Shown here one piece after another: positions 4,516-30,714 of a stretch of 32,000 nucleotides of DNA; within the stretch, counting starts at the first letter, position 1; each line of letters starts with the position of its first letter. The stretch covers positions 2,730,001 through 2,762,000 of the forward strand of contig NC_016803.1 in assembly GCF_000189295.2 (NCBI RefSeq). The letters are read 5' to 3'. The notes beneath the pieces are model-generated. The model did not search any database. It was not told where the DNA came from and worked only from the letters and a program-made list of their open reading frames with translations. Position numbers and translations under genes: made by a program. This DNA comes from Pseudodesulfovibrio mercurii. GTDB taxonomy: Bacteria > Desulfobacterota > Desulfovibrionia > Desulfovibrionales > Desulfovibrionaceae.

Positions 4516-4531
4516 AGCAATAGCCATGCCA
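4516..4531 (-). promoter_or_regulatory. sigma54 promoter (TGGCATGgctaTTGCT)
   Basis: Near-perfect match on the minus strand to TGGCACG-N4-TTGCW. It lies 38 nt upstream of the RBS/ATG at 4478 and directly downstream of a ~70-bp AT-rich tract (4537..4605). Confidence 0.75.
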
Positions 4532-8407: not shown

Positions 8408-11400
8408 TCAGTCCCGAGGCCCGAAGTATGCGGACAGGCAGCCGTTGAGGTGATTTTTCACGGTTCGCGACAATCGTTTGATCCCCAATATGTTCGCCAC
8501 GTCTCGGACCCTGTCGTCACTGGCGGCGAGTCCCGGATGGGCGGCGATGAGCCCGAATATCTCGTGCCGGGAGATCTCGGTGGCGCTTCGGCCCTCTATG
8601 GAGCGGAACGGCACGGTTTCCCGGCAGCTCCCCGGAGCCCAGATGAAGGTCGTCCCGGCCTCCGGGCGGCGTTCTTTTCCGTCCAGGCAGGCATCGATCC
8701 GCTCCCTGATCCTGGCCCCGGTCCGTTTCCATCCATGGGCCTTGCAGATGGTCCGGGCCAATCGGTTGGCCTCGATGGGCCCTTCGGCTGCGACGAGAAC
8801 GTCGATCATCCGGGCCAGGATCGGGGTGTAGTCGGGGTCGAAAAACCGGTTCGCGTCCGGCTGGACCGGCCGGTTGACGGCGGCCTCTTCCTCCGGGGCG
8901 TCCGCTGAAGGCGTTTGCTCCGGTTCCGCAGGGGCGACCGTTTCCGGGCCCACCGGATTCGGGGACAGGTCCTCCGTCCGCCCGATTCCGGCATGGAGCC
9001 GCCGTTGCGGGGCGGGCGGGGCGACCGTCGGGCCGGCCATGCCGGCGGCGAGCCCACGGGGAAGGTCTGGCCATTCCCGCCGCGCCTCCGAACGGCTCTC
9101 GGCCCGGGCCGCTTCCTCCTCCTCCCGCCGCCGGGACGCCTTGAGCAGTCCCTCCAGTTCCTCATGCACCCGTTGCAGCGCTTCGGACGGATTCATGAAC
9201 CAATCCGCGGACCAGATGCGGAGGATGTTCCATCCGAGATTGCGCAGCACGGCCTCGCGGATTTCGTCGCGGTCCCGGGCTGTTGCGGAATGATGGTAGG
9301 TCGCGCCGTCGCACTCGACGCCCGCGAGATAGGCCCCGGCATGGTCGGGGTGGACCACTCCGAGATCGATCCGATACCTGGAGACCCCGATCCGGGGCCG
9401 CACTTGCCACCCCCTGGCCTCCAGGGCCGCCATCACCGCCTCTTCGAACGGGCTCTCGGCATCCTCCGTCGAATCGGCGTTCATGGCGGGCAGGGCGATC
9501 GGGCCGTTCTCGGCGTACTCCAGGAAGTTCTTGAGATGGGCCACGCCGAGGGCGTTGGTCCTGGAAGTATCCATGTCGTCGGCGTCGATGGAAGAGAAAA
9601 CGTGCATCTCGCGGCGGGCCCGGGTCACGGCGACATTCAGGCGTTTTTCGCCGCCGTCGCGGTTCAATGCGCCGAAGCTCATCGACATCTTCCCGGCTCC
9701 GTCGCGGCCGAAGGTGACGGAGAAGCACATGATGTCGCGCTCGTCTCCCTGGATGTTCTCCAGGTTCTTGACGATGACCGGCTCTTCCCGCTCGTCGCTG
9801 AAATACCATTCCAGGTCCGGGTTGGACCGCCTGGCCTCGTCGAAGAGATTGAGGATCAGTTCCTGTTGCTGGATGTTGAAGGTGATGACCCCGAGCGTGG
9901 GACGGTCCCCCTCGGGCCGTTGGAGCCAGCTTTCCAGGCGCGATTGGGCGAAGCGCACGATCTCCCGCGCCTCCTCAAGGTTGGTGCGGCCCGTTCCCCG
10001 CGCATAGGTCCCTTCGTTCCTGTGGAGGACCAGGGCCTTCGATTCGGTCGCGGGCGATGGAAAGGTGATGAGTTCGCCGTGGTAATAATGGTGGTTGGAA
10101 AAGGCGATCAGCGACTCGTCGCGGCTGCGATAGTGCCAGTTCAACCGGATCGGCGGCAGGCCCGCCGCATCGGCCTCCTCGAGAATGCTCGGCAGGTCCT
10201 TTTCGTATTCGGCCAGGTCCTCCGCATCCTCGTCGTCGGTGCGGCCGAAAAAGTTGGTGGGGGGCAGCTGTTTCGGGTCGCCCACGATGATGGATTGCCG
10301 CGCCCTGGCGATGGCCCCGACCGCATCCCAGGTCGTGATCTGCGAGGCCTCGTCGAAGATGACCACGTCGAACTGCGTTTGATCGGCAGGGAGATATTGC
10401 GCCACGGACAGCGGCGACATCAACATGCACGGCGTCAGCTTGGTGAACGTGGTCGGCATGCCTTCGATGAGTTTGCGGATGGAGAGGCTCGGCCGTTGCA
10501 GGCCGAGCTGGTGGCGCAGCAATCCCAGCTCGGACCGGCGGGGCACGGCGTTCCTGGTGGGCAGGTCATGGGAGACATTCCTCAGGACCTGGTCGGCGGC
10601 CAGCGCCCGCACCGTTCTGTCGCGCCGCCTGAATTCCTTGATCAGGTCCTCGTGGGACCAGTGGCGGAAACCCCGGAGTTCGGAGCTGGCGTCCAGGGCC
10701 AGGGGCAGCCACCATGTGAAGTAGGCCGCGCGGAAATCGGCGCGGGCATCCTCTATCTCTCCGTCCCGGAGGGCGTCCAGGAAGGCGCCGAGCCCCAGCG
10801 TCCTGGCCTCTTCCCTGACGGCCGCCCATCGGGTCCAGTCCGCCAGTTGCGCCCTGTGGTCGACGAGGAGGCGGAGGTCCCCGGCCAGGGCCTCCAGGGA
10901 GGTCGCGTGCGGTTCGCCCCCGGCGTGGGCCGAGTAGGCGTCGCGGGCGTCCTGGAATCTCGCCAGCGCGGAGTGGAACTTCTCGGCCAGGAGCGCCGCC
11001 TCGGGTTTGTCTCTCCGGAGCAGGGCCTCCAGCGTGTCCGCGAAACGATTTGCATCCGAGGCGTGCCGCCGCACATCGTCGAGCGCCCGCTGCAGTTTTT
11101 CCGTCTCTCTCAGATAGGCGGCGACCTGGGTTCCGTCGGTGTCCTCGTGCCGGAAGACCGGGAGGTTGGCCAACTCGCTCCGATCGACGGTTTCGAGATT
11201 GTCGCGGAGCCGCCTCAGGGGCTCTATCTCACCGGCCACGTCGACCCTGCCGTCCGTTGCGTAGCCCTGGAGCAGACGGGTGACCCGGCGGCGCGCCCAG
11301 GCGGAGAATGGCCACATCCGGGCGTTGGCCTCCCGCCATTGCCGGTCGATGTCCTCTATGGGGAGGCGCCGCAATGCGGAGTTTTCGTAATCGGCCGACA

Positions 11401-14281
11401 AGCCGGAGCGCGCCTGGCGGATGGCGGCGATGGCCGTGTCCAGGGACGCGGCGGCCTCTTCCAGGCGGCCCAGTTCCGCGTCAACGACGTTGCCGTAGTC
11501 CTGCTCGGAGGAGATTCGGCAGACTTCGTGGAAGCGGCGCAGGCTGTCGATGCGTTCGGGATCGTTTTCCCCGGCATCGGGCAGGCCGATGCAGTCGGCC
11601 AGGGCGTCCGCCGCCTCCTTGAGCGGGGGGATCGCGGAAAGGACGCCCTCGGCGCGCTCCATCAGGTCGTTCTCCCATCGGTACGACCATTCCCTAGCCC
11701 CGACGCTGTCGAATCCCCGGCAGTCGCGGACGATGGGGTAGACCCTGGCGGCCCGGACGGCCGTGTCCTCCAGCCTGGCGAACATGGCCGGATCGTGCGC
11801 TCCGGGGTTGTCGAATGTAACCGTGAATTCTCGGCGACGGCCCACCGCCATCCCGATGGCCTGGAAGATGCTGAAGCCGTGGCTGCCCGGGGCGTGCAGC
11901 TGCTCGACGTATTCGTTGAGGCGGTCGCGCGTTTCCCGGAGCCGCTCCGTCTCGCTATGCCAGGCGTTCGCGGAATGGGCTTCGCTCCGTTCCCAGGCGG
12001 CCCCCAGCTGCGCCAATACCCGTTTGCGGTTCGCCTTGTTGGAGTGGAGTTCGAGGCAGACGCTGCCCAGTCCGTAGGCCTTCAGCCTGCGGTAGACGAC
12101 GTCGAGGGCCGCGGCTTTCTCCGCGACGAAGAGGACGCGTTTCCCGATGGAAAGGCATTGGGCGATCACGTTCGCGATGGTCTGGCTCTTCCCGGTTCCC
12201 GGAGGGCCGATGACGATGAAGTCGTATCCCTTCATGGCGGCCACGACCGCGGCCAGCTGCGAACTGTCCGCGGGCAGGGGCGTCAGGAGTTCCCGGGGGG
12301 AGACGTTCTTGTCGATCTCGTCCGGGATGGGGAGGCAGGCCCCGCCGCACGCCTGCTCGAAGGGCGTTTCGGGCGAATCGATGAGGTGCTTGACCAGGCG
12401 GTTGTTTTTCAGGTCGTCGGTCCGGTCCACCAGGTCCTTCCACATCAGGTACTTGGCGAAGGAGAAGGTGGAGAGGGCCGCATCCTCCACGACTTCGAAG
12501 CCGGGGACGTCCCGCACGGCCCGGCGCATGCGGTCGAAGATCGCCGGAACGTCTATGCCCGCGTCATCGACGGGGAGTTCCCCCTCGAGCGACTGGACCT
12601 TGAGCCCGAAGTCCCGTTGCAGGAATTGCAGGAGCGTGGCGTTGATGCGCACGTCGTCCTCGTGGTGCGTCAGCGAGAAATGGGATCGGGCCGAGCTGCG
12701 TTTGAGCGTGACCGGGAGCAGCAGGATCGGGGCCCGGCAGCTCGTCGGATCGGTTTCCGTCTTTTTCCACCTGAGGAAGCCGACCGCGAGATAGAGGGTG
12801 TTGGCGCCGCCCTCGATCATTTCGCTGTTGGCCTTGCGGTACAGGGTGACCAGGCGGTTGCGCATGTCGTTCCCGGTGAGCGGGATGCAGAGCTGTCTGC
12901 GCTCCAGGGCGTTTTGGGCGAACTCCTCGTGTATGTCCTTCCCGTGCTGTCGGCGGTAGAGCTCCGGGTCCCGCGCGCCGATGGGATTTTCATCCTTCAG
13001 GGAAATGATCCGCAGGGCCTTTCCTTCCGCCAGCATGTCCTCGAGTTCGGGCAGATTCGGACAGAGCACCGGCACGGTCTGCCTGGTGTCCCTGAAATTG
13101 AGCAGCCGGTTGCGCAGGGTCAGGTCGAGCAGTTTCCGCTGCCAGCGGTCGATCCTGCCCTGAGGCGTCCGCGGGGCCTCGTCCACGATTTCGCCCGGCA
13201 GCAGCCCGAAGTCCGGCTCGGGGGGCAGCGCCGCCGGAGCCGTTTCCTCGATGGTTCCGGCTTGCGCCCGTTCCGTCTGGTGCGAGGCCAGGGGCGTGAT
13301 GCCCGCGAAGCGGGCCCGCCGGATGTCAACGGCCCGTTCGAAGTCGGTCTCGTTTCCCTCGCCGAGCTGGGCCTGGGCGTTCCGGACCGCCTGGGCGAAG
13401 TCCGCGACTGGGCGCGTCGTGACGAGGGTCGTCTCGAAGGCGATGAATTCCCGCGCGGCAATGGCCTTCCGGAGTTCGACCACGTCGGGCTCCTCGATGG
13501 AAGGCAGGGTCTTGTCCGTGAGCCATACCCCGGCGAAGGCGTGTCCCTTGGTGAAGATGACGACCGGGTTGAGCCCCGCCGCCTCCAATGCGCCGGCGAA
13601 AAGCAGCGATCCGTCCAGGCAGGTGACGAGCCCTTGGTCCAGAATCCGTTTCGGGCCGCGAATCTTCTGCCCGGTTCGCTCGAACGAGGCCGGAGGCTCC
13701 GCATAGCTCAGGGTCATCCCCGTGACGGCCGACCAGATCGCCGCCGCGAGCATGTAGGCGCGTTTGGGGTCCCTGCTCTGATAGCCGTCCAACGCCCCCT
13801 TCCGGCCGCTTGCCTCCAGCAGCATGCTCGCCCGCTTGCAGATCCCCGCCACGGCCGGATCGTTGGGCGAGACGAAGGCCGCGAGGATGCCCGCCATTTC
13901 CCCGACGCCGCCCCATTCGTCGCGGGCGAGCAGCCGCAGGGGCAGCGTCCGTTCCGCCAGGACCGCGTCCCCCCGCCTCAGCCGGAAGTCGAGCTGCCCC
14001 TGTTCCGCCTCGTCGAGGCCGTCGAAAAAGGCGAAGTCGCTCTCCAGCCGCAGATCGGCAAGGGAGACCTCGTCATAGGCGCCGATCCTGTCGATGACCC
14101 AGGTCTTGTCTCGGCAGAATCGGGGATGGGGATCGAGTTCCAGGGTCAGGTCGTCAAGGGGCTCGTCCGAGGTGTTGCGGATCGTGATGCTGCGCAGGAT
14201 GGGCACCATGTTTTGCGCGGAGGCGTGGTTGACGCATTCAGCGTAGGCGATGTGCAGATCCGGGGTGGTCGGTCTATCCAT
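8408..14281 (-). CDS. 1957-aa multidomain protein: transglutaminase-like N-domain, DUF4011-like region, Upf1-type SF1 helicase, Vsr/DUF559-like endonuclease fold, DUF3320-like C-terminus
   Basis: GAGGGGG RBS. A Cys/His pair sits in LVTCLDGS...TKGHAFAGVW (Cys codon about 13619..13621). Helicase motifs are IGPPGTGKSQT (12185..12208), VVIFDEASQ, IIVGDPKQLPP and RLNVAVTRARREMHVF. The nuclease-like block is RGWQVRPRIGVSRYRIDLGVV...GVECDGATYH...LRNLGWNILRIW (about 9182..9415). An acidic/Pro linker is followed by YTPILARMIDVLVAAEGPI... Confidence 0.95.
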   Translation of the reverse strand: MDRPTTPDLHIAYAECVNHASAQNMVPILRSITIRNTSDEPLDDLTLELDPHPRFCRDKTWVIDRIGAYDEVSLADLRLESDFAFFDGLDEAEQGQLDFRLRRGDAVLAERTLPLRLLARDEWGGVGEMAGILAAFVSPNDPAVAGICKRASMLLEASGRKGALDGYQSRDPKRAYMLAAAIWSAVTGMTLSYAEPPASFERTGQKIRGPKRILDQGLVTCLDGSLLFAGALEAAGLNPVVIFTKGHAFAGVWLTDKTLPSIEEPDVVELRKAIAAREFIAFETTLVTTRPVADFAQAVRNAQAQLGEGNETDFERAVDIRRARFAGITPLASHQTERAQAGTIEETAPAALPPEPDFGLLPGEIVDEAPRTPQGRIDRWQRKLLDLTLRNRLLNFRDTRQTVPVLCPNLPELEDMLAEGKALRIISLKDENPIGARDPELYRRQHGKDIHEEFAQNALERRQLCIPLTGNDMRNRLVTLYRKANSEMIEGGANTLYLAVGFLRWKKTETDPTSCRAPILLLPVTLKRSSARSHFSLTHHEDDVRINATLLQFLQRDFGLKVQSLEGELPVDDAGIDVPAIFDRMRRAVRDVPGFEVVEDAALSTFSFAKYLMWKDLVDRTDDLKNNRLVKHLIDSPETPFEQACGGACLPIPDEIDKNVSPRELLTPLPADSSQLAAVVAAMKGYDFIVIGPPGTGKSQTIANVIAQCLSIGKRVLFVAEKAAALDVVYRRLKAYGLGSVCLELHSNKANRKRVLAQLGAAWERSEAHSANAWHSETERLRETRDRLNEYVEQLHAPGSHGFSIFQAIGMAVGRRREFTVTFDNPGAHDPAMFARLEDTAVRAARVYPIVRDCRGFDSVGAREWSYRWENDLMERAEGVLSAIPPLKEAADALADCIGLPDAGENDPERIDSLRRFHEVCRISSEQDYGNVVDAELGRLEEAAASLDTAIAAIRQARSGLSADYENSALRRLPIEDIDRQWREANARMWPFSAWARRRVTRLLQGYATDGRVDVAGEIEPLRRLRDNLETVDRSELANLPVFRHEDTDGTQVAAYLRETEKLQRALDDVRRHASDANRFADTLEALLRRDKPEAALLAEKFHSALARFQDARDAYSAHAGGEPHATSLEALAGDLRLLVDHRAQLADWTRWAAVREEARTLGLGAFLDALRDGEIEDARADFRAAYFTWWLPLALDASSELRGFRHWSHEDLIKEFRRRDRTVRALAADQVLRNVSHDLPTRNAVPRRSELGLLRHQLGLQRPSLSIRKLIEGMPTTFTKLTPCMLMSPLSVAQYLPADQTQFDVVIFDEASQITTWDAVGAIARARQSIIVGDPKQLPPTNFFGRTDDEDAEDLAEYEKDLPSILEEADAAGLPPIRLNWHYRSRDESLIAFSNHHYYHGELITFPSPATESKALVLHRNEGTYARGTGRTNLEEAREIVRFAQSRLESWLQRPEGDRPTLGVITFNIQQQELILNLFDEARRSNPDLEWYFSDEREEPVIVKNLENIQGDERDIMCFSVTFGRDGAGKMSMSFGALNRDGGEKRLNVAVTRARREMHVFSSIDADDMDTSRTNALGVAHLKNFLEYAENGPIALPAMNADSTEDAESPFEEAVMAALEARGWQVRPRIGVSRYRIDLGVVHPDHAGAYLAGVECDGATYHHSATARDRDEIREAVLRNLGWNILRIWSADWFMNPSEALQRVHEELEGLLKASRRREEEEAARAESRSEARREWPDLPRGLAAGMAGPTVAPPAPQRRLHAGIGRTEDLSPNPVGPETVAPAEPEQTPSADAPEEEAAVNRPVQPDANRFFDPDYTPILARMIDVLVAAEGPIEANRLARTICKAHGWKRTGARIRERIDACLDGKERRPEAGTTFIWAPGSCRETVPFRSIEGRSATEISRHEIFGLIAAHPGLAASDDRVRDVANILGIKRLSRTVKNHLNGCLSAYFGPRD

Positions 14282-14439: not shown

Positions 14440-16011
14440 TCAGCCCGCCGGGGGACGGGCGGGTGGTTTCGCCGCTCTCGCCCGCCGGTTCTGTTCGTCC
14501 AGCCAGTTGAGGACATACGCCCAGCAGCGGGGGCTGGGTTCGCCGTTGTGGCGCAGGAAGAGCTGGCCGACGTGGGCGTTGCCCCTGCCTCCCCGCAGCT
14601 CCAGGGTGGCCCGTTGCGGGTAGAGGACGCGATAGATGGTGCACAGTCCCGCCTCCACCAGGTCCGCGTAGTTCCAGACGCAGTGATCCTGCCACCGGCC
14701 CTCCTCCAGGAGCTCCTCCGGCGTCCGTATGGGGATGATGACGCCGTCGCTCATGTAGGGCGGCCGGGGAAAGACGGTTCCCCACCGGCCCCGGTTCTCC
14801 CGGAACCAGGCCATCCGCCGGACCGCGTTCGCCCAGCGGGCGTGCAGGTGTTGCAGGGCCTGCACGGTCGGGCAGGCCCGGACGACCTGTCCGGCGTCCT
14901 GGATGCCCAGGCTTTTGCCCAGGCCGACCGTGTCCATGTATTCCCCTCGGACCAGGCTGAGGGGCCGGGGAGAGGGTTCCGGAGCCAGGAAGCGCCGCTT
15001 GAGGAATTTTGCGGCCAGGATGTCGTAGCGCCCGTCCAACTCGCCGAGCCGGTCCAGGTCGATGACCGGATAGTGGCGCAGCTGCCCCACCGCCTCGGCA
15101 TTGCACAGGAGCCGTTCCGCGTCCCGGAACGTGGCGCTGTCGTAGCTGTGGCTGCGGGTTTTCCTGAGCAGGGCGGGCGTGACCCCGGTCCCGTCGCCGA
15201 AGAGCAGGCGGATGAGCGCGGTCTGCTTCATCTTCAGCAGATCGGGTATGTCCCCGGTCAAGCGGCGATTGCGGACCAGCCGGGCGGCGACGAGCCAGAG
15301 CAGGGTGGGATTGCTTGTCGCCAGCTGCACCGCGTAGTCGGTCCGGCGCATCATCCGGAGGATGGTGAACTGCCGCCATGTGAATTGCCCGGCCGCCTCC
15401 CTGACGTGGGCCGGAATGGGGCGCAGGAAGTCCTCCAGCCATTGCGCCTGTGGGACCGGCAGCCCGTGCAGGCCGAGCAGCGGCAGGTCCGGGTCCCGCT
15501 CGTCGCGCCACCAGCCCCAGAACGGGGCCGTCGCCTGTCGCCGGGGCGCGGGGGCGTCGGAATTCGGCCGCCGGGACCAGCCGTGCAGGCGCCCCCAGCG
15601 TTCGAACATCAGCCCGTCGGCCCAGGAGGTGATCCGGGCGACGCCGTCCGTTTCGGAGCGGAGATGCAGATATTCCGGTTGGTGCCTGTGGCGGAAGAGA
15701 CGGATGATTCCTTTGTGCATGGCGCCTTGTGCGGGGTTGTTCCGGCTCGGGCGGAAGGGCGCGGCAAACCGGGTGTGTGATGGAGACGGGCAGGAGGGGA
15801 TGGGCGCGGCGTCGGCGGGCGCATCCGCCGCTCCGCATCGGATGGCGAGGCGTTCGCGCCCCCCGAAGCCGTGGCCGGGGAAGCCGTCGCCGTTTTCGGT
15901 CAGAGGGAGCCGGGCGGTCCCCGGCGGGGTTGCCGTGGGTTCGGCCTCCCGCTCCGGTTCCACGGGCGAGTCGAGGGCCTTTTGCCGGGAGCAGAGGGTA
16001 ATGAACAGCAT
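14440..16011 (-). CDS. PcfJ-like domain protein
   Basis: ATG 16011 has GGAG 8 nt upstream; an alternative start is ATG 15720. The C-terminal block PEELLEEGRWQDHCVWNYADLVEAGLCTIYRVL...ATLEL resembles the PcfJ-like EGxxMxHCV core. The 774-aa form in the track runs through the upstream genes. Confidence 0.7.
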   Translation of the reverse strand: MLFITLCSRQKALDSPVEPEREAEPTATPPGTARLPLTENGDGFPGHGFGGRERLAIRCGAADAPADAAPIPSCPSPSHTRFAAPFRPSRNNPAQGAMHKGIIRLFRHRHQPEYLHLRSETDGVARITSWADGLMFERWGRLHGWSRRPNSDAPAPRRQATAPFWGWWRDERDPDLPLLGLHGLPVPQAQWLEDFLRPIPAHVREAAGQFTWRQFTILRMMRRTDYAVQLATSNPTLLWLVAARLVRNRRLTGDIPDLLKMKQTALIRLLFGDGTGVTPALLRKTRSHSYDSATFRDAERLLCNAEAVGQLRHYPVIDLDRLGELDGRYDILAAKFLKRRFLAPEPSPRPLSLVRGEYMDTVGLGKSLGIQDAGQVVRACPTVQALQHLHARWANAVRRMAWFRENRGRWGTVFPRPPYMSDGVIIPIRTPEELLEEGRWQDHCVWNYADLVEAGLCTIYRVLYPQRATLELRGGRGNAHVGQLFLRHNGEPSPRCWAYVLNWLDEQNRRARAAKPPARPPAG

Positions 16012-16052
16012 GGCATGATCTCCAGGTACGCCGGGGTCGGAGTCCCGGCGGT

Positions 16053-16559
16053 TCAAGGTTGTCGTCCCCGGCGGGCCGCAACGCGGTCCTCCCGTCCTTC
16101 GCGCGCGGCCAGCCGGTCGAGCAGGCCCGAGAGGTGCTCCCGCAATTCGGCGTTGATCCGCAGCCGCCGCCGGGCCGCGGCCGCATACTTCGCCGTCCGC
16201 TCCCGTTTGGCCGCATCCATCCAGAAGGGCAGCCATTTCGCGCCCGGGGACCCTTCCGGCCGGGGCGGGTCCAGGGCCGCGATGAGGTGTCGGACCTCGC
16301 CGACGAGTTGGCAGCGGAGTTCGCCGACGTCCGAAACGGCCTTCCGGCCTTGCTTCAGGTCCGTCATGCGGCCGTCCAGTTCCCTGCGCAGGAGGTCGAG
16401 GCGTTCGATGCCTTCGGCCACCTCGTCCGAGGTCCGGGCCTGCGCGTCCAGGAGACGGGCCGAGCGGAGCACGCCCGCGTCCTCTTCCCGTCCCTCGTGA
16501 ACGACCACGAGGCCGAGGAGGAGGGAGAGGGAAACGGCCAGGATGGTCAGGGCCTTCAT
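16053..16559 (-). CDS. secreted or membrane-anchored coiled-coil protein, paralogue of 3832..4320
   Basis: 168 aa with an AGGAGG RBS and the signal/anchor MKALTILAVSLSLLLGLVVV. It carries KWLPFWMDAAKRER (16197..16238) at the same residue position (108-121) as its paralogue. Its ATG overlaps the stop of the transglycosylase gene. Confidence 0.8.
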   Translation of the reverse strand: MKALTILAVSLSLLLGLVVVHEGREEDAGVLRSARLLDAQARTSDEVAEGIERLDLLRRELDGRMTDLKQGRKAVSDVGELRCQLVGEVRHLIAALDPPRPEGSPGAKWLPFWMDAAKRERTAKYAAAARRRLRINAELREHLSGLLDRLAAREGREDRVAARRGRQP

Positions 16560-17164
16560 GGCCTGTCCTCCTGCCGCAGCAGGCGGTGGAACTCCCGGAA
16601 CACCCGCCGGATATGCCGCCGGGTCTCAAGCGGGTAGTCGCGTTCGCCCCTGCGGACGTGGGTGGGTCCCCAGTTGTAGCCCGCCAGGGCGAGGGCCGGG
16701 TCCTTGAATTCCACGAGCAGTTCCTTAAGGTAGCGGGTTCCGCCGAAGATGTTCTGGCTCGCATCCCACGGGTTCTCGACGCCCAGGTATTCGGCCGTCG
16801 CGGGCGTGAGCTGCATCAGCCCCATGGCGTTGGCCGGGGCCGGGGACTTGGCCCGCGGGTTGAAGTCGGACTCCACCTTGATCACGGCCTCGATGAATCG
16901 GGGATGGACGCGATATTTCCGGGCGGCCGCGCGGATGATCGGGCGATACCGGGCCGCTGCGTCCCGTTCGGGTTTCGCGGCGACGGGCCTGATGGCGCGC
17001 GGCTTGCGGGCCTCCTTGCCCACGGTCATGTTCCGGATGAAGGCCGTGCAGTCCCGGATCTCCAGCAACCAGTCCGCCCGGGCCGACGTCGGGAAGACGA
17101 TCAGCAGCGCGACGAGCAGCGCGAAGGCCGTCCAGCCTGTCCTGTGGTGCGTGTTGTCTGTCAT
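16556..17164 (-). CDS. lytic transglycosylase (SLT domain) with an N-terminal signal/anchor
   Basis: 202 aa with a CAGGAG RBS. It shows the SLT signature IKVESDFNPRAKSPAPANAMGLMQLTPATAEYLG ... AGYNWG and the N-terminal hydrophobic segment WTAFALLVALLIVFPTSARA. Confidence 0.9.
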   Translation of the reverse strand: MTDNTHHRTGWTAFALLVALLIVFPTSARADWLLEIRDCTAFIRNMTVGKEARKPRAIRPVAAKPERDAAARYRPIIRAAARKYRVHPRFIEAVIKVESDFNPRAKSPAPANAMGLMQLTPATAEYLGVENPWDASQNIFGGTRYLKELLVEFKDPALALAGYNWGPTHVRRGERDYPLETRRHIRRVFREFHRLLRQEDRP

Positions 17165-17216
17165 TGGAAGCTCCTGTTGTTTTCGACGCCGTCTCGCATC
17201 CCGTCGGTTCCGGTTG

Positions 17217-17672
17217 TCAGCGGGCGGTTCCCGGCCGCTCCTCCTGGAGCGCCTCGACGATGTTCGTCAGCTTTTCGGCCAGGCTCTCCACGGCTTCGGC
17301 GTCCCCGCCGGTTTCGGCATCCCCGGTCCCGCCGACAAATCCGCTGCCGGTTGCGCCGTCGGGGGCCGTCTCCACGGAGGGCCGGGAGGCCATGTCCCGC
17401 GACTCGCCCTTCGGCGGCGCGGCTTGGCCGCCTTCGTCGGCGACCGCCGGGGCCGGGCCGGCCGCAACGGCCTTTTCGGTCCGCTGCGGGGTCAGATGCC
17501 GCTCCAGCGCCTCCAGTCCGCGCTCCAGCCCTTCCTTGTATGCCGCGTCCACCCGCTGCGCGAATTCGCGGGCGAAGCGCAGGGTGTTCGGGTAGCGGTC
17601 GGCGTTGGTCCGGAGGAAGCCGAACAGGTGGATGCCCAGGGCCAGGATGATGACGAAGTGGATGAGGCGCAT
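17217..17672 (-). CDS. small membrane-anchored protein with an acidic, low-complexity C-terminal half
   Basis: ATG 17672 is preceded by GGGAGGG at 8 nt. The N-terminal TM segment is MRLIHFVIILALGIHLFGF. The 582-aa ORF in the track is an upstream artefact. Confidence 0.65.
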   Translation of the reverse strand: MRLIHFVIILALGIHLFGFLRTNADRYPNTLRFAREFAQRVDAAYKEGLERGLEALERHLTPQRTEKAVAAGPAPAVADEGGQAAPPKGESRDMASRPSVETAPDGATGSGFVGGTGDAETGGDAEAVESLAEKLTNIVEALQEERPGTAR

Positions 17673-17686
17673 GTCGGTTGCCCTCC

Positions 17687-18598
17687 CTATCCGAGTTGAA
17701 TGGTGATGTTCACCCGCCTGCGGGACCCGTTCCGGAACCGGAGGTCGCGGAGCTCCATGGCCAGGGAGGCGCCGGACCGCCGGTACCAGCCGGAGATCGA
17801 GTCCACGTCGCGGGTGGCGATGCCGTCCCGGCCGAGGGCGTCCTCCACGGCGCCGGCGATGTAGTGGTCCACGTTCATGGGCAGCAGCAGGGCGACCCTG
17901 TAGCGGCCGGGACCGTGCTCCCGCCGGGCCTGTTCGAGGTAGGGCTCGACCCATGCCTCGCCCTCCAGGAAGCGGGACTTCGGGCTCATGCCCGAGAGAC
18001 TCCGCAGGGGCTCGAGACGTCCGGCCCGGATGTCGAGCAGGGCCACCAGGCTGTCCGTGTTCAGGTTGACCACGCCGAAGCGCCCGCCGATCCTCCGCAT
18101 GGCGGCGATGTATTCGCCGGAGGCGAGGTGCATGGAGGTGTCGATGGCGATGTTCGGGAAGGTGCCGATGCGCTCGCCGTGGCTGCCCAGCGCCCGTTTG
18201 CCCTTTTCGGCCAGCTGTTGCCGGAAGGCGTAGGTGTGCGCTCCGGACTTGGCCGCGTCCTCGTGCCGCTCGCGCTCCGTGCGCCGCGTCGTCTTCGGCG
18301 GGGGCGGCGTCTTCGGCGTCCGGGCGGTGGCCACGGCGGGGGCCGTCGCCTTGGCCGGGGCCTTGGCTTCGGACTTGGTCGCGGTCCGGGGCTTGTCCGC
18401 CTTGACCGTGACGAAACGGACCTTTATCCGGGTCTCGGACGGCTCGGTGCGCGGCTCCTCCCTTTTGACCGGGGCGTCTTCGGGAAGGGGCCCCCCGGCC
18501 GGATGAGGCGGAGCGAACGGCAGGGCGACGATGCCGAAGACCACCGCCCCGGTGAGCATGAAGCCGAACCCCTTCAGCCATTTCCTGAGGTTTTTCAT
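17687..18598 (-). CDS. TonB-topology protein: N-terminal TM anchor, Pro/Lys/Ala/Thr-rich spacer, ~180-aa C-terminal domain of unknown family
   Basis: 303 aa with an AAGGAGAGG RBS. The anchor is GFGFMLTGAVVFGIVALPF and the spacer is PPHPAGGPLPEDAPVKREEPRTEP...KAPAKATAPAVATARTPKTPPPPKTT. The C-terminal domain lacks the short TonB C-terminal pattern. The gene lies immediately downstream of the ExbB/ExbD-like genes. Confidence 0.8.
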   Translation of the reverse strand: MKNLRKWLKGFGFMLTGAVVFGIVALPFAPPHPAGGPLPEDAPVKREEPRTEPSETRIKVRFVTVKADKPRTATKSEAKAPAKATAPAVATARTPKTPPPPKTTRRTERERHEDAAKSGAHTYAFRQQLAEKGKRALGSHGERIGTFPNIAIDTSMHLASGEYIAAMRRIGGRFGVVNLNTDSLVALLDIRAGRLEPLRSLSGMSPKSRFLEGEAWVEPYLEQARREHGPGRYRVALLLPMNVDHYIAGAVEDALGRDGIATRDVDSISGWYRRSGASLAMELRDLRFRNGSRRRVNITIQLG

Positions 18599-18622
18599 AG
18601 CGCCTCTCCTTGTCCCTCGGGG

Positions 18623-19081
18623 TTATTGCGTTTCTTCGTAAACGAAGGTGAAGGACTGGACCTCGCCCTGGCGGCAGGCCCGGATGACCTTCATGATGGT
18701 TCCGTTGGTGACCAGGTTGTCGGCGCGGATGGCGACCTCCCGGACCTTTTCCTCGCGCAGCGCGTCCGGAAGCCGGTCCATGGGCACCTTGCGTTCGCCG
18801 AGGAAACAGTCGGCGGCGCCGTCCGTCATGGTGATGGATATCCTGGTTTCCGGAGGCTGCGCGGCCTCGCTTTCTCCCTGCCGCCGCATCTGGGTCAGAT
18901 CCACCTGGGGCAGCGTTTTTTCCTGCATCATGGCCCCGTTGGCCAGGATCATGATGAAGCTGCACATGAAGATCAGCGAAAGGACGAATCCTATCTCCGA
19001 AAGGGATACGGGCATGGCCGGGATGTCGTCGGGCAGGCTCTGCCGTATCCTGGCCGTTGCCGTTCTCGCGCTGGCGGTCAT
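18623..19081 (-). CDS. ExbD/TolR-family biopolymer transport protein
   Basis: 152 aa. Its ATG overlaps the stop of the upstream gene (ATGA). It has a single TM (LSEIGFVLSLIFMCSFIMILA) and a periplasmic domain ISITMTDGAADCFLGERKVPMDRL...VAIRADNLVTNGTIMKVIRACRQGEVQSFTF, which is typical of ExbD. Confidence 0.8.
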   Translation of the reverse strand: MTASARTATARIRQSLPDDIPAMPVSLSEIGFVLSLIFMCSFIMILANGAMMQEKTLPQVDLTQMRRQGESEAAQPPETRISITMTDGAADCFLGERKVPMDRLPDALREEKVREVAIRADNLVTNGTIMKVIRACRQGEVQSFTFVYEETQ

Positions 19082-19686
19082 GACTGGCGCTCCTTGGGGT
19101 TGCAGGCGGAGTTGAGCAGCAGCTTGGCGATGGTGGCGACGATGAAGAGTATGATGCCGAAGATCGTGGAGCCCAGCGCCACGCCGATCTGCAGCGCCAT
19201 GCCGGAGAATGCCTTGACCAGCCCGGCGCTGAAGTCGATGGAGGTGAAGGTGTCCTGCATGGCGATGAAGGTCCCGAGCAGCCCCGCGTTGGGGGCCGTG
19301 CACAGGATCACCGTGTACAGGGCGGGCCACGCCGGGGTGTCGCAGGCCCCCCGCAGGTGCCGGATGTCCCGGATGACGAGGTATGCCAGCAGGAGGGCCA
19401 GGGGGTAGAGCAGGATCCCGACCACGCCGACCCTGCGGAACATGGTCTCCAGGATGTCCACGTGTCTGGCGGCCTCCATGATCCGGGGACCGGCCAGGAT
19501 GTAGCCCGCGGTGAGCAGGGCCCCGACGAGCATGGCCGCGGAGTAGTATCTCCAGTGGGAGACGAGGTCGGTCTTCCAGCTCGTCCTCGCCTGGGCCGCG
19601 ATCCGCGCTTTCCTCGGTTCCGGGACGCGCTCCCGGTACACCCCGGCGGGTGCTGCTTCCTTTCGGATATCGTTTGCGTTGTTCAT
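19078..19686 (-). CDS. MotA/TolQ/ExbB-family proton-channel protein
   Basis: 202 aa with an AGGAGG RBS and three hydrophobic segments. It shows the family signature APNAGLLGTFIAMQDTF ... ALGSTIFGIILFIVATI. Confidence 0.8.
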   Translation of the reverse strand: MNNANDIRKEAAPAGVYRERVPEPRKARIAAQARTSWKTDLVSHWRYYSAAMLVGALLTAGYILAGPRIMEAARHVDILETMFRRVGVVGILLYPLALLLAYLVIRDIRHLRGACDTPAWPALYTVILCTAPNAGLLGTFIAMQDTFTSIDFSAGLVKAFSGMALQIGVALGSTIFGIILFIVATIAKLLLNSACNPKERQS

Positions 19687-19695
19687 GTCGTCCTC

Positions 19696-20070
19696 CTAGT
19701 CGTCCATGTGGAAGGTTCTGCCCACGAAGAAGGCCTCGGGCGATATCTCGACCCCCTTGGTCTTCAGAAATCCCATGAGGATTTCGGATGCGAACAGGTC
19801 CGGGTCGCCGCTGGTGGAGGCGTCGCCGTAGAACGTGTCGCCCACCTCGCCCACTGCGGAGAGCTGCATTTCCAGGCGGATCATCTCCAGCGTGTGACGG
19901 TTCCGGGTTGCCGCCGGGGTGTCGCGCAGGCCGTCCACGATGACCGTGACGGTGGCCTGGTGGTATTCCCGCCGCCACTTGTCCTTCCACCAGCCTTCGT
20001 CTGCCAGGGCCGAGGTTGCGATCAGGGCGGCGAACAGGGCCAGGATGATGGTGATGCAAGTCTTTTTCAT
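19696..20070 (-). CDS. small secreted protein (124 aa)
   Basis: AAGGAGG RBS and signal peptide MKKTCITIILALFAALIATSALA. No domain was recognised. Confidence 0.75.
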   Translation of the reverse strand: MKKTCITIILALFAALIATSALADEGWWKDKWRREYHQATVTVIVDGLRDTPAATRNRHTLEMIRLEMQLSAVGEVGDTFYGDASTSGDPDLFASEILMGFLKTKGVEISPEAFFVGRTFHMDD

Positions 20071-20082
20071 GGCGTCCTCCTT

Positions 20083-21021
20083 CTAGTACCGGTGTTCATT
20101 CTTCAGAATCTTGTCGAACGTGGCGTCGTATGCGCCCGCGTCGGCGTCGCCGTCATCCTGGGCGGTCCTGTCCTGGGTGACGAGTTCCAGGGTGTTCCGG
20201 CGTTCCTCGACGCCGTCGTAGAAGGCCAGGGGCGCCTTGCGGATTCCGGCGCTCTTCTTGGCGAGCACGGAATTCTTGAGGCCCAGGACGTTGAGCAGTT
20301 CCTCGATGGTGACCATCTTCAGGTAGACCTTCTCGAGCCCGAGCAGCCGCTTGATGCTGAACATCTGGGCGCAGATAAGCTCATAGTTCTTGCGGGTGGA
20401 CTCGATCTCGTCGGCGTTCATGTGGCCCGCGCTCTTGGAGTAGGTCCGATTGGCGCGGTAGATCAGGGCGATGGTCTTCTTGATGGCCCCCAGCTGCGCC
20501 TGGTCGATGCCCTTCACGTTTTCGTACTTTTCCAGGCGGCTCAGGACCATCGCCGAGGAGTGGATGCGGTCCAGGAACCGGTTGCGGTACGCATCCAGGG
20601 CCCGGCTGTCCTGATTGTTCCCCTGGTGCTGCCGGATCTCCCGGGCCAGCTGGTCGAAGATGGGAACAAAGGTCTGGAGGCTGCCGATGTAGGCGTCCAC
20701 CTCGCGGATGGACACGTTGTTCACGTGGGCGCTCTGGGCGATGATGTCCGCGCCGATGGCCTTGGCCCTCAGCGGGTCGTTCTCGTTCTTGTATTCCTCG
20801 GCCAGCCGCTTGAGATCCTCCTCGGCCGCGTGGCGTTCCTGGACGATGGCGCTGATCTTTTCGTCCAGGGCGTCGAATCCCTGGTCCAGGCGCTGCATGA
20901 GGTTCTTGATGACGTGGCCGCTGACTTCGGAGGCAACGGCGATCTGTCCGAACAGGAGCAGCGCGCCGAGGCTCAGAACCATCGTCAAGACCAGCGTTTT
21001 CGGTTGGGTGCGAATTTCCAT
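20083..21021 (-). CDS. secreted or anchored helical protein (312 aa)
   Basis: AAGGAG RBS and N-terminal hydrophobic segment LVLTMVLSLGALLLFGQIAVA. The protein is long and helical and has lower GC than its neighbours. Its position upstream of ExbB resembles the periplasmic coiled-coil partners seen in some TonB-type clusters (inference). Confidence 0.85.
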   Translation of the reverse strand: MEIRTQPKTLVLTMVLSLGALLLFGQIAVASEVSGHVIKNLMQRLDQGFDALDEKISAIVQERHAAEEDLKRLAEEYKNENDPLRAKAIGADIIAQSAHVNNVSIREVDAYIGSLQTFVPIFDQLAREIRQHQGNNQDSRALDAYRNRFLDRIHSSAMVLSRLEKYENVKGIDQAQLGAIKKTIALIYRANRTYSKSAGHMNADEIESTRKNYELICAQMFSIKRLLGLEKVYLKMVTIEELLNVLGLKNSVLAKKSAGIRKAPLAFYDGVEERRNTLELVTQDRTAQDDGDADAGAYDATFDKILKNEHRY

Positions 21022-21042
21022 GGTGTACTCCTTCTGGCCGGC

Positions 21043-21618
21043 CTAGCGGTCGAACAGTTCTCGGGTTTCCGCCGGATGAGCATTGGGTTGGTAGGGACGG
21101 CCCGCCGCCAGGTCGCCGATGGCCAGCAACACGCGCTCCTCACGGTTCAACTCGGACCGGGCGATGGGATCCAGGGAGCGGTCGATCTCCTCCAGGAGCT
21201 TGGCCGCCTCGGGACCCCGGCCGAGCCTGAGCAGCATGTCCGCCCTTGCGAAGAGGCAGCTGCGGCCGAACCGGCTGCCGGGCTTGGCCAGCCGCTGCGC
21301 CATGTCGAACAGGCGTTCGGCGTTGTCGTAGCGGCCTTCCCTCGAGACCTTCAGGGCGCGGGCGATGATCTGTTCCGGCCTGGCCGGATCGACGCCCAGC
21401 TCCGCCGAGGTGAGGAGGACCTCGTCGATCTCGACGTCCTTGCTTACCTCGATGGGTTCGGACTGGTCCTTGACCACCACGGGCGCCATGGGCGCGACCG
21501 GGGGCTGGGCGCGTTGTCCGAGGGAGTTGTTGAAGGCGGTGCAGCCGCTGAGCATGATGCCCGCAGCCAGGATGACGCCGGTCAGGGCCATCATTCGAAC
21601 GATGCGTTTACTTCTCAT
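21043..21618 (-). CDS. lipoprotein with a TPR-like helical C-terminal half
   Basis: AGGAGG RBS and a signal peptide with the lipobox LSGC (MRSKRIVRMMALTGVILAAGIMLSGC). It is the first gene after the sigma54 promoter. Confidence 0.85.
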   Translation of the reverse strand: MRSKRIVRMMALTGVILAAGIMLSGCTAFNNSLGQRAQPPVAPMAPVVVKDQSEPIEVSKDVEIDEVLLTSAELGVDPARPEQIIARALKVSREGRYDNAERLFDMAQRLAKPGSRFGRSCLFARADMLLRLGRGPEAAKLLEEIDRSLDPIARSELNREERVLLAIGDLAAGRPYQPNAHPAETRELFDR

Positions 21619-21644
21619 GGAATCCTCCTGTTTTCCCCTCGTTG

Positions 21645-21660
21645 AGCAGGAGGCGTGCCA
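21645..21660 (-). promoter_or_regulatory. sigma54 promoter (TGGCACGcctcCTGCT)
   Basis: On the minus strand the -24 half (TGGCACG) is perfect, the spacing is exact and -12 reads CTGCT. It lies 27 nt upstream of ATG 21618, with AGGAGG in between. An AT-rich tract (21664..21713) lies immediately upstream. Confidence 0.8.
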
Positions 21661-22034: not shown

Positions 22035-22514
22035 CTATTCGAGGTAGCCGAGGGCCTCGAGATTCTTTTGCAGGATGCCGCGCAGTTCCCTGGGGGCGTC
22101 CTTTCTGGCCAGCGCTTCGGCCATGGGCCGCTTTTGCGGGCGGGGGGCGGCCTCGGCGGAAACGGCGACGGGTTCCCGGATCGCCGCGTCGGCGGGGCTC
22201 GTGCCCGCTTCGGCCGTTTCGCCGCCGTCCGGGGAGGTTTCCCCCTTGCCGTCCTGTTCCTTCAGGGCGAAGGCGGACGGGCTTTCCAGGGCGTCCCGCT
22301 CGGCAAGCCGCCGGTTCATTTCCCTGACCTGCCGCCAGGTGTCGGGCATGGGGGCCATGGCGGCGGATGCGGCCTCCCGTTCCGGGTTCGGGGCGCTCCC
22401 CCGCCATCCCGAAAGGAAGCCGGGCAGGTTCATGTTGCCCAGGATGTTCACGGCGCTGATCAGGATCACGAAGGTCAGCGCGACGCCGGTGATGAAACCA
22501 ATGAGTCTTTTCAT
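22035..22514 (-). CDS. membrane-anchored hypothetical protein (159 aa)
   Basis: GGAGG RBS. The ATG overlaps the upstream stop (ATGA). The N-terminal TM is LIGFITGVALTFVILISAV and the middle region is acidic/Pro-rich. Confidence 0.75.
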   Translation of the reverse strand: MKRLIGFITGVALTFVILISAVNILGNMNLPGFLSGWRGSAPNPEREAASAAMAPMPDTWRQVREMNRRLAERDALESPSAFALKEQDGKGETSPDGGETAEAGTSPADAAIREPVAVSAEAAPRPQKRPMAEALARKDAPRELRGILQKNLEALGYLE

Positions 22515-23248
22515 GGAATGCCTCCGGATGAGGTGTTGTGGCCCATGGGCGGGCCGGGTTGCCGGGTGTCGTCGCCAGCCGCCGGGGCGGATTCGCGGAG
22601 CGAGGCGCGGGCCAGGAACACGGCCCTGCTGGCGGTGAGGTGCATGTTCTCCAGTTGCAGCAACACGCGCAGGCGCAGGAGGCCGTCGCGGAGAGCCGCT
22701 CCGTCGAAGGGGATGCGTCGTCGCGCGCCTGCGGGAAGGGGGGTCGGCCGGGGGCCGTATTCGCGCCGCATCTCCTCGGCTTGCCCCATCACCTTCCGGT
22801 TCGTCCGGTCGAGGAGCCGGTAACGTCCGGCGTGCTTGAGAGCACGGTTCGACCCCGTCCGAAGATCGTCCATGAGCCGGAGAAATTCCCTCCGGTTGTC
22901 CTCACGGGCCGCTTCGGTCCGGGCGAGCCTGGACTCGTTGTCGCGGATGGCCTTTCCGAGCCGCTCCGTTTCGGTGATCAGGCCGTCGATGCGTCCGAGC
23001 GCCGATTCGTTGCCGGAAAGCAGCCCTTCGATCACGGAGTCGATCCGCGCGTGGGCAGCATCAAGGAGAGCGGCCCCGTCCGCCGGTCCCACCAGCGCGG
23101 GCCGACGCGCCGCCTGGGTGGGCGAGGTGAACAGCCCGAGGCAGAAGACGGCGTTTACGGCCAGCAGCAGGCCCAGCGCGGCATACGCCGCCGCCAGCCG
23201 TATGGTTTCCGTCCGGTCGGGCGAAGCCCTGGAAAACGTGTCGCGCAT
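22511..23248 (-). CDS. membrane-anchored coiled-coil protein (245 aa)
   Basis: ATG 23248 is preceded by AAGGAG at 5 nt. The TM segment is LAAAYAALGLLLAVNAVFCLGLF and is followed by a helical charged region. The start at 23305 in the track lies upstream of the RBS. Confidence 0.75.
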   Translation of the reverse strand: MRDTFSRASPDRTETIRLAAAYAALGLLLAVNAVFCLGLFTSPTQAARRPALVGPADGAALLDAAHARIDSVIEGLLSGNESALGRIDGLITETERLGKAIRDNESRLARTEAAREDNRREFLRLMDDLRTGSNRALKHAGRYRLLDRTNRKVMGQAEEMRREYGPRPTPLPAGARRRIPFDGAALRDGLLRLRVLLQLENMHLTASRAVFLARASLRESAPAAGDDTRQPGPPMGHNTSSGGIP

Positions 23249-23293
23249 CTCGGCTCCTTGTTGCGTGCTTGTGTTGGGTTCCACCCCGCCATA

Positions 23294-23309
23294 ATCAAGG
23301 AGCATGCCA
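23294..23309 (-). promoter_or_regulatory. sigma54-type promoter candidate, variant -12 (TGGCATGctccTTGAT)
   Basis: On the minus strand the -24 half is perfect and the spacing exact, with TTGA at -12. It lies 46 nt upstream of ATG 23248, with an AT-rich tract (23331..23368) upstream. Confidence 0.45.
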
Positions 23310-28206: not shown

Positions 28207-28219
28207 GTCAGGAACCAAT

Positions 28220-30456: not shown

Positions 30457-30714
30457 GATGTCCCCCTCCTTGTCTGTTTCCGATCCATCGCGTGAGGGAC
30501 CTCCCCTCACACCAGGGCCTTTTGGCGGCCAACGGAAACTCGCGTCGGTTTTGTCGGGAAAACAGGCGGGAGATATCAGGTGATTTACATAAATGGCTTG
30601 ATATGTTCGCTGGTTGGGAGTTAACACAAGACAGTGTATTTTCGGGGACGGCAGCGTGTTCCGTTCCGGCCCGCCTGTCAGGCGCCATCGGACGGGGGTG
30701 CGGGGACGGCCCGG

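Follow-up and report, generated by a model that had tools for sequence, protein, structure and literature searches.

A motor-centred gene array in Pseudodesulfovibrio mercurii ND132

The stretch analysed here, hereafter the window, comprises 32,000 nucleotides of contig NC_016803.1 (positions 2,730,001 to 2,762,000) of Pseudodesulfovibrio mercurii ND132 and has a GC content of approximately 66%. On its minus strand lies an array of genes centred on an ExbB-like and an ExbD-like protein, the putative subunits of an ion-driven inner-membrane motor, together with a lipoprotein, a protein of TonB/TolA topology (below, the anchor), an exported SLT lytic transglycosylase and several other exported or membrane-attached products. 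A preliminary description of this DNA had delimited ten genes, from the lipoprotein gene to a PcfJ-like gene, and had connected them with a helicase-nuclease gene beyond. In order of transcription, and in window coordinates, the genes are:

22511..23305, minus strand: up2, bitopic protein with one transmembrane (TM) segment and a periplasmic coiled coil; first conserved gene of the cluster
22035..22514, minus strand: up1, protein with an N-terminal TM segment, an acidic low-complexity tail and a conserved C-terminal end ('..ALGYLE')
21043..21618, minus strand: g1, lipoprotein of 191 aa with lipobox LSGC and a TPR-like helical domain
20083..21021, minus strand: g2, exported or anchored all-helical protein of 312 aa
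19696..20070, minus strand: g3, secreted protein of 124 aa with a signal-peptide-like N-terminus
19078..19686, minus strand: ExbB-like protein, 202 aa, Pfam MotA_ExbB
18623..19081, minus strand: ExbD-like protein, 152 aa, Pfam ExbD; ATGA overlap with the ExbB-like gene
17687..18598, minus strand: anchor (identical to DND132_2470), 303 aa, TonB/TolA topology
17217..17672, minus strand: g7, small bitopic TM protein of 151 aa with a low-complexity acidic/Gly-rich tail
16556..17164, minus strand: SLT lytic transglycosylase, exported, family 1, 202 aa
16053..16559, minus strand: CC168, bitopic coiled-coil protein of 168 aa with a KWLPFW motif; ATGA overlap with the SLT gene
14440..16011, minus strand: PcfJ-like protein, 523 aa, Pfam PcfJ
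8408..14281, minus strand: helicase-nuclease, 1957 aa (DUF4011, SF1 helicase, MTES_1575 REase, DUF3320)

All ten open reading frames (ORFs) from g1 to the PcfJ-like gene are present on the minus strand as the preliminary description had placed them. The spacings computed from their coordinates (21, 12, 9, -4, 24, 14, 52, -4 and 41 nt, in that order) agree with its account of gaps of 9-52 nt or 4-nt overlaps, and the helicase gene is indeed the next on the strand, 158 nt after the PcfJ-like gene. The up1 and up2 genes likewise overlap by 4 nt. The true start of up2, which contains one hydrophobic segment and has no Pfam or PADLOC match, is probably the ATG at 23248, and the acidic low-complexity tail of up1 is probably disordered. 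For the PcfJ-like protein, the likeliest start codon is the ATG at 16011, as the GC content at third codon positions (GC3) is still 0.8 upstream of 15720.

Four proteins of the array (MotA_ExbB, ExbD, SLT and PcfJ) score above the Pfam gathering cut-off, and five (g2, g3, the anchor, g7 and CC168; 312, 124, 303, 151 and 168 aa) have no Pfam match. Among the plausible ORFs of the window, selected by GC3, Pfam detected no TonB_C, TonB-dependent receptor, TolB, Pal or OmpA domain, in line with the earlier statement that such partners are missing here. No terminator-like sites were seen on the minus strand between 13800 and 23500, and the window is free of tRNA genes.

The cluster is conserved and extremely rare

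When 1.84 billion cluster representatives were scanned in full with HMMER, 20 proteins of the ExbB-like family were returned at E<=1e-3, so that the cluster is not a widespread housekeeping Ton/Tol locus. A word-indexed search of 5.8 billion clusters matched the ExbB-like protein and the anchor to their own clusters only, and a search with the 20-sequence profile added few relatives, on short contigs. Pattern-limited scans found one locus in 185,579 species genomes and at least one locus in metagenomes. Neither the ExbB-like protein nor the anchor had relatives in plasmid, phage and viral collections. Nine related loci, with GC contents of 36-65% and from genomes spread over the phylogeny, were compared with ND132:

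L002: Desulfobacterales metagenome-assembled genome
L003, L004, L005: metagenome contigs
L006: Maridesulfovibrio sp.
L007, L008, L011: contigs assembled from sequencing runs (Logan)
L009: metagenome contig (its genes recur on a shorter contig, L010)

Synteny was derived from all-against-all BLAST combined with tblastn against the window, and concerns most genes wherever a contig reaches far enough. The core order is lipoprotein, g2, g3, ExbB-like, ExbD-like, anchor, small TM protein, SLT and coiled coil, and the proteins of the relatives are 25-63% identical to those of ND132. L004 is a distant, variant locus; in L002 the first three core genes are located downstream of the rest, and in L005 the lipoprotein gene stands immediately before the ExbB-like gene. 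Homologues of g1 were found in L002, L005, L006, L007, L008, L009 and L011, and those of g2 in L002, L006, L007, L008, L009 and, split into two genes, L011. The SLT gene occupies the matching place in every locus that reaches that far (L002, L003, L006, L007, L008, L009 and L011), and a gene resembling g7 by size and position, its similarity being undetectable, occurs in L002, L003, L008 and L009.

Homologues of up1 stand at the same place in L006 (7544-8050) and L007 (1464-2036); a homologue of up2 does so in L007, where it falls into the same BLAST cluster, and L006 6842-7516 can be aligned with up2. The conserved unit therefore starts upstream of the boundary drawn in the preliminary description, whose ten-gene block is conserved as a colinear core in nine loci but neither in its upstream limit nor in the PcfJ-like gene, which these loci lack. 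The conservation of gene content and order provides strong evidence that the cluster is a real multi-component system. Within the literature library searched, no account was found of such a cluster or of its locus tags, and the core system is most likely previously undescribed.

A putative minimal ExbB/ExbD-type motor

The ExbB-like protein matches PF01618 (MotA_ExbB) at E = 4.4e-8 (33.4 bits, cut-off 22.9) and the ExbD-like protein matches PF02472 (ExbD) at 2.3e-7, above the gathering score. However, the NCBIfam equivalogs for ExbB, ExbD and TolR yielded 16-20 bits against cut-offs of 127-216 (for ExbB, 20 against 135). The ExbB-like protein has four hydrophobic segments (residues 48-66, 87-105, 125-143 and 169-187) joined by very short loops; the loop between TM2 and TM3 counts approximately 19 residues or fewer, and the large cytoplasmic loop with which MotA contacts FliG was not found. 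An AlphaFold2 (AF2) model of the monomer built with 20 family sequences is all-helical (pLDDT 84), and its best PDB neighbours in Foldseek are exclusively PomA, ExbB, TolQ and MotA chains, as exemplified by TolQ (76 columns, 2.6 Å). In the last two helices, the family keeps the motifs 'AP..G.LGT' and 'G.A…(S)T..G', and G168, A170 and G177 are among the conserved residues.

The acidic TM residue of the ExbD-like protein is Glu29. When it was aligned with nine homologues and with E. coli ExbD and TolR (the latter two entered by hand), the position of ExbD Asp25 and TolR Asp23 was found to be Glu in six family members and Asp in three, Glu marking the ND132 subfamily and Asp the distant members; the truncated product of L008 does not reach this column. 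For the conserved TM Asp mentioned conditionally in the preliminary description, the acidic character has thus been kept, the residue in ND132 being Glu. Pfam detected no OmpA-like domain in the ExbD-like protein, and a peptidoglycan-binding domain of the MotB type is absent. Given the stator-like four-TM model and the retained ExbD carboxylate, a functional ion-conducting complex of the ExbB/ExbD type is plausible; it would be minimal, without the cytoplasmic domain of ExbB, TolQ and MotA.

Predicted envelope partners of the motor

In the anchor, an N-terminal TM segment is followed by a linker rich in Pro, Lys and Glu and by a C-terminal domain of approximately 180 aa that is conserved, and the motifs G..FP, LxGxSPxxR, LLxP… and G.Y are invariant among nine homologues. 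None of the nine family members has a Pfam match at E<=1, the TonB C-terminal domain (PF03544/PF13103) was not found in them, and the family profile gave only chance-level matches against PDB sequences. An anchor-like protein of L004 (2033-3523) retains the TM segment, a Lys-rich linker and the first motif, the rest of the C-terminal domain being replaced by TPR repeats.

The lipobox Cys of g1 is invariant in eight homologues and the +2 residue is never Asp, so that by analogy the lipoprotein probably goes to the outer membrane; its TPR matches in Pfam are sub-threshold only. Both g2 and g3 have signal-like N-termini, and the profile of the g2 family has no match among PDB sequences, nor has the g3 family a match in PDB. 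Seven homologues of g3 share the invariant residues W32, L48, E67, L98, F115 and F120. L008 probably has a g3 gene as well, since an uncalled ORF at 1354-1715, missing from its gene table, codes for a peptide resembling g3 (…RWRHEHRQQVIKLIRGY…). A kinship of up2 with g2, considered on account of an 'LLxLE(K/R)xxL' motif near both C-termini, was not supported (hhalign probability 3%).

The N-terminal 61 aa of g7 are 48% identical to L007 6075-6455. The transglycosylase matches PF01464 at 6.8e-24 with the ES (catalytic Glu), GLMQL and AGYNxG motifs intact, its sequence reading ...IKVESDFNP..GLMQL..AGYNWGP. Since an N-terminal hydrophobic segment occurs in every conserved product except the helix-hairpin-helix (HhH) protein described below, the machine would be essentially periplasmic or membrane-bound.

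The 3' tail of the cluster is displaced in ND132

Downstream of the coiled-coil gene, L006, L007 and L009 carry first a gene for an HhH-like protein of approximately 115 aa and then one for a papain-like protein of approximately 470 aa. The latter (L006 13507-14901, L007 7918-9351, L009 7367-8281) belongs to the papain family (Peptidase_C1), with Cys/His motifs intact, and has an HhH/DUF4332-like N-terminus; a C-terminal TM anchor is seen in L006 and L007, and the L009 protein ends at the contig edge. The L002 version (3643-4362) has lost the protease core but retains both ends. By tblastn, no gene for the papain-like protease was found in the ND132 window. The coiled-coil and HhH genes of this tail have counterparts in ND132 on the far side of the helicase gene, and a third gene lies between:

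3832..4320, minus strand: CC162, coiled-coil protein with a KWLPFW motif, orthologue of the post-SLT gene of L006 and L007
3488..3835, minus strand: HhH-like protein of approximately 115 aa, cytoplasmic; GTG start, GTGA overlap with CC162
5559-7799, plus strand: IetA-like protein of 746 aa with two AAA+ modules (PADLOC IetA, 5.5e-35)

The coiled-coil gene of L007 (7089-7574) aligns with CC162 over 160 aa (9.5e-13) and with CC168 over 93 aa (2e-7), and that of L006 matches CC162 at 1.9e-4. CC168, 37% identical to CC162, is a paralogous second copy. The HhH-like protein is 45% identical to L007 7571-7915 (2e-27) and 36% identical to L006 13141-13491, and relatives in its family have weak, sub-threshold HHH_5 and DUF4332 matches. 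Judged by these similarities, CC162 and the HhH gene (3488-4320) are the displaced 3' tail of the system, approximately 12 kb off.

The ND132 cluster is thus split, between two diverged copies of the coiled-coil gene, by a segment of approximately 12 kb that carries CC168, the PcfJ-like gene, the helicase gene, the IetA-like double AAA ATPase and a gene for a secreted 190-aa protein. Because the orthologous tail lies beyond the helicase gene, the latter is inside the interrupting segment. Helicase and PcfJ genes are absent from all nine related loci; together with the displaced tail, this points to the PcfJ-like, helicase and IetA-like genes as lineage-specific cargo. Co-occurrence of the block with the helicase gene, a question raised in the preliminary description, was accordingly seen in no related locus (0/9), and a functional link between motor and helicase on the logic of Zorya is not supported either, since no relative has a helicase or PcfJ gene by the block and the tail lies beyond the helicase.

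The helicase-nuclease matches the PADLOC model PDC-S37 (E=0, 1204 bits) over residues 375-1950, which cover positions 8-1531 of the 1550 in the profile, and Hhe at 5e-169; Pfam recognizes DUF4011, AAA_11/12, the MTES_1575 REase and DUF3320. It resembles PDC-S37/Hhe in its full-length match and domain architecture and differs by an extra N-terminal part of approximately 375 aa outside the PDC-S37 profile. This likeness, which concerns the helicase only, makes it a candidate for a separate single-gene phage-defence gene, located in the cluster in ND132 only. The PcfJ-like protein matches Pfam PcfJ at 1.1e-6, above the gathering score, and the only relatives found on plasmids bear PcfJ domain annotations. 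No IetS-like protease partner of the IetA-like ATPase was seen.

Sigma54-type sites

Four sigma54-type or sigma54-like sites and one activator gene of the window deserve mention:

21646..21660, minus strand: sigma54-type site TGGCACgcctcCTGC, before the lipoprotein gene
23295-23309: weak sigma54-like site TGGCATgctccTTGA, near up2
4517..4531, minus strand: second sigma54-type site TGGCATggctaTTGC, upstream of CC162
5505-5519: sigma54-like site TGGCATggcccTTGA, just upstream of the IetA-like gene, an inverted repeat with the 4517-4531 site
29281-30627, minus strand: sigma54 activator (bacterial enhancer-binding protein, bEBP) of 448 aa; no sensor or helix-turn-helix domain recognized by Pfam

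The site at 21660 noted in the preliminary description is real as a sequence: TGGCACgcctcCTGC has one mismatch to TGGCAC-N5-TTGC, keeps GG-N10-GC, is preceded by an AT-rich tract and stands 27 nt before the g1 ATG, whose start context is AGGAGG-N7-ATG. Across the window, 28 sigma54-like matches with up to two mismatches were observed against 28.7 expected; as there is no enrichment, the weight of TGGCACgcctcCTGC comes from its position and its conservation in relatives. The cluster of L006 is headed by the near-identical TGGCACatctcCTGC, and further sites occur upstream in L002 (TGGCATgctgtTTGC) and upstream of the lipoprotein gene in L009 (TGGCACgtatcTGGC). The site TGGCATggctaTTGC, too, has one mismatch to TGGCAC-N5-TTGC and follows an AT-rich tract, 196 nt upstream of the CC162 ATG. 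A 53-codon ORF between this site and CC162 was discarded, since it is Arg/Pro-rich, has no homologues and looks non-coding.

Genes for bEBPs occur approximately 8-10 kb from the cluster in both ND132 (29281-30627) and L006, and the ND132 protein is a candidate regulator of the cluster. The two proteins have only the generic AAA+ core in common, which leaves their orthology unproven.

Neighbouring genes

Just upstream of the cluster, on the plus strand, a STAND-type NTPase of 1508 aa (23680-28206) shows weak matches to NACHT (Pfam, 0.0075) and, in its NTPase core, to Avs2 (PADLOC, 1.8e-9), and is possibly an Avs-like defence gene. An alpha/beta-hydrolase-like ORF (27968-29284, plus strand) with a weak ABHD18 match is convergent with the bEBP gene. 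At the other end of the window, a zinc-ribbon ORF (2089-2346, plus strand) shares 50% identity with the N-terminus of a pentapeptide/FGE-sulfatase protein of L006, the last product of the cluster there. The adjacent ORF at 2359-3366 (plus strand; 335 aa, no Pfam match) begins with VIGCGGCG and ends with EIPAFLRRLE, an end that we take to resemble the C-terminal peptide of FtsZ. An ATPase of the MoxR/AAA_5 type (747-1835, minus strand) is followed, beyond the window (L012), by a HEAT-repeat protein of 1012 aa, with weak similarity to PADLOC PDC-M26A and IetA. The defence-island setting considered for the cluster in the preliminary description applies to ND132 but does not extend to its relatives, in whose flanking genes no defence enrichment was seen.

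Comparison with known systems

The cluster resembles the TonB-ExbB-ExbD system in having PF01618 and PF02472 subunits encoded by adjacent, translationally coupled genes, in the acidic TM residue of its ExbD-like protein and in the gene that follows, whose bitopic product contains a Pro/Lys-rich linker. However, the ExbB-like protein is a four-TM protein devoid of a cytoplasmic domain, the carboxylate of the close subfamily is Glu, and the anchor contains neither a TonB C-terminal domain nor a TM His. Moreover, no TonB-dependent receptor occurs in the window or the related loci, and an SLT enzyme and several exported proteins without recognizable relatives have been added. Like Tol-Pal (TolQRA-TolB-Pal-CpoB), the cluster unites a motor in the inner membrane with an extended transducer of bitopic topology, a lipoprotein of the outer membrane and a periplasmic TPR/coiled-coil component, and a functional tie to peptidoglycan cleavage is plausible. 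It differs in that TolA domain III, TolB and Pal/OmpA domains were not found in the window or among the called genes of the relatives, in possessing its own lytic transglycosylase and sigma54-type sites, and in being a rare accessory, whereas Tol-Pal is near-universal.

Zorya likewise employs a stator-like motor outside flagella and the Ton/Tol systems; a helicase-nuclease stands beside the motor in ND132, and cytoplasmic effector-like genes occur in some relatives. Nevertheless, neither motor subunit had a PADLOC match at E<=0.01, with ZorA and ZorB included, and no operon protein matched any PADLOC model, which upholds the earlier remark that these proteins are unlike ZorA-D. The long tail of the ZorA type and the peptidoglycan-binding domain of ZorB are missing, and relatives do not share the linkage to the helicase.

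GldLM/PorLM of type IX secretion and AglRQS-Glt of Myxococcus gliding are non-flagellar motors of the 5:2 type that power machinery of the periplasm or outer membrane, their genes accompanying those of lipoproteins and TPR proteins. The present cluster has other partners, and it contains no Gld, Por or Glt family by Pfam and NCBIfam and no secretion pore or adhesin. The nearest precedent for its gene arrangement is provided by the recently proposed vWA 'force transducers', in which tolQ/tolR-like genes stand beside a TPR gene and a gene for a bitopic protein of TonB/TolA topology with a non-TonB C-terminal domain (Mol Biol Evol 2025, PMC12204202). Those proteins have a vWA domain and a motor-binding TM His, neither of which is present here, where the C-terminal domain has no detectable relatives and an SLT enzyme is added. 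In its TPR-like character, the lipoprotein is reminiscent of CpoB, a protein lipidated in numerous phyla (PMC12204202).

Interpretation and alternatives

We interpret the cluster as a rare accessory, sigma54-controlled envelope machine of the Ton/Tol class that transduces force, with the helicase, PcfJ and IetA genes as unrelated cargo, and assign a probability of roughly 55% to this statement as a whole. That a conserved motor-centred system is present and that the helicase is not linked to it can be stated with high confidence. The mechanism by which force would be transduced is put forward more tentatively, at somewhat less than even odds. The ExbB-like and ExbD-like proteins would assemble 5:2 into a proton-driven inner-membrane motor and, because this motor is almost devoid of cytoplasmic domains, it would deliver its work to the anchor within the membrane or the periplasm. 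With its extended linker, the anchor would span the periplasm, its C-terminal domain passing through an opening that the SLT enzyme cuts locally in the peptidoglycan; there, this domain would meet the lipoprotein of the outer membrane as well as the helical and the small periplasmic proteins. As output, the outer envelope may be remodelled mechanically or gated, and the machine would be turned on by a signal acting through a bEBP and sigma54. The HhH protein and the membrane-tethered papain-like protease of some relatives suggest a link to a cytoplasmic event.

Several observations weigh against this interpretation. A His is missing from the TM segment of all nine anchors, in which the SxxxH motif was not found. 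It is by this TM His (SxxxH) that TonB and TolA bind their motors (PMC12204202), and the coupling of motor and anchor is therefore deduced solely from synteny and topology. The interaction of the motor subunits, their stoichiometry and their ion dependence are themselves inferred, and the Foldseek matches of the ExbB-like model have E-values of 0.24 or worse and TM-scores of approximately 0.3, with mostly the last two helices aligned. The single-sequence AF2 model of the anchor reached a pLDDT of 45 and was not used, and the anchor C-terminal domain, g2 and g3 resemble no known protein. The outer-membrane location of g1 derives from the +2 rule of E. coli, and the cluster encodes no outer-membrane beta-barrel or other clear output device. 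Control by sigma54 is proposed from sequence matches in ND132, L006, L002 and L009. Finally, the ends of the 12-kb segment bear no scars and no direct or inverted repeats, so that its 'insertion' is deduced from gene order.

Alternatively, the cluster could act in anti-phage or anti-plasmid defence, with a motor that, as in Zorya, senses envelope damage and activates cytoplasmic effectors, namely the HhH and papain-like proteins in relatives and the PcfJ-like protein and the helicase-nuclease in ND132. The surroundings in ND132 (the PDC-S37/Hhe helicase, the IetA-like ATPase and the STAND NTPase with its weak similarity to Avs2), the rare and patchy distribution, the intact Cys/His motifs of the protease that accompanies HhH in three relatives and an effector-like 3' end that differs between genomes would all fit, variable effector ends being typical of defence systems. 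We nevertheless regard a defence role as quite unlikely, in view of the missing PADLOC matches (ZorA-D included) and ZorA-type cytoplasmic tail, the unremarkable flanks of the relatives and the empty searches of phage, plasmid and viral collections. Moreover, the helicase, a known single-gene candidate, is unlinked in relatives, no nuclease is conserved, and the majority of the conserved components are periplasmic.

A further alternative is a regulated device for breaching the envelope, serving secretion, surface assembly, vesicle release or controlled lysis, in which the motor supplies energy and the SLT enzyme, the bitopic coiled coils and the lipoprotein act like an endolysin with spanins or like the wall-piercing parts of a secretion system. 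A dedicated SLT enzyme, strictly conserved here, is a hallmark of flagella, type III and type IV secretion systems and phage lysis cassettes; several bitopic coiled-coil proteins accompany an invariant lipoprotein, and tight sigma54 control fits a costly or dangerous function. The SLT domain also matches PHROGs of phage endolysins and tail lysins, but these matches are generic to the domain. Secretin, beta-barrel, ATPase, pilin, cargo-like substrate and holin families went undetected, the lipoprotein (approximately 165 aa when mature, TPR-like) is unlike o-spanins, and no phage genes lie nearby at any locus, all of which makes such a device unlikely. An ordinary TonB or Tol-Pal housekeeping system with partners encoded elsewhere has been largely refuted and is very improbable. 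It would account for the Pfam scores of the two motor subunits, the topology of the anchor and the CpoB-like appearance of the lipoprotein, but not for equivalog scores far below the cut-offs, the absence of TonB_C, TolA, TolB and Pal from the nine anchors and their loci and of the TM His, or the four-TM ExbB-like protein without a cytoplasmic domain. The extreme rarity of the family likewise argues against a housekeeping role.

One may go further and suppose a new class of proton-driven 5:2 motor, in which a minimal four-TM ExbB-like wheel with a Glu-bearing ExbD axle, a transducer with a novel periplasmic domain and a wall cutter would couple the outer envelope to the HhH protein and the membrane-tethered protease, as a mechanochemical device for trans-envelope signalling or defence that would have no described counterpart. 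This extension is speculative, and we consider it improbable.

Implications

To our knowledge, few uses of 5:2 ion-driven motors have been recognized (flagella, Ton, Tol, gliding/type IX secretion and Zorya), and every new set of motor partners has revealed another way to send energy across the envelope. The motor described here is unusually small, with no cytoplasmic domain and with Glu in place of Asp in its closest members, and its partners comprise four or five families without detectable relatives and a built-in lytic transglycosylase. The presence of candidate defence genes (PDC-S37, IetA-like) lodged in another operon calls for caution in reading function from adjacency in a single genome. 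ND132 is a genetically tractable model among mercury-methylating sulfate reducers, and its cluster constitutes a compact test case for the coupling of a motor to non-TonB transducers.

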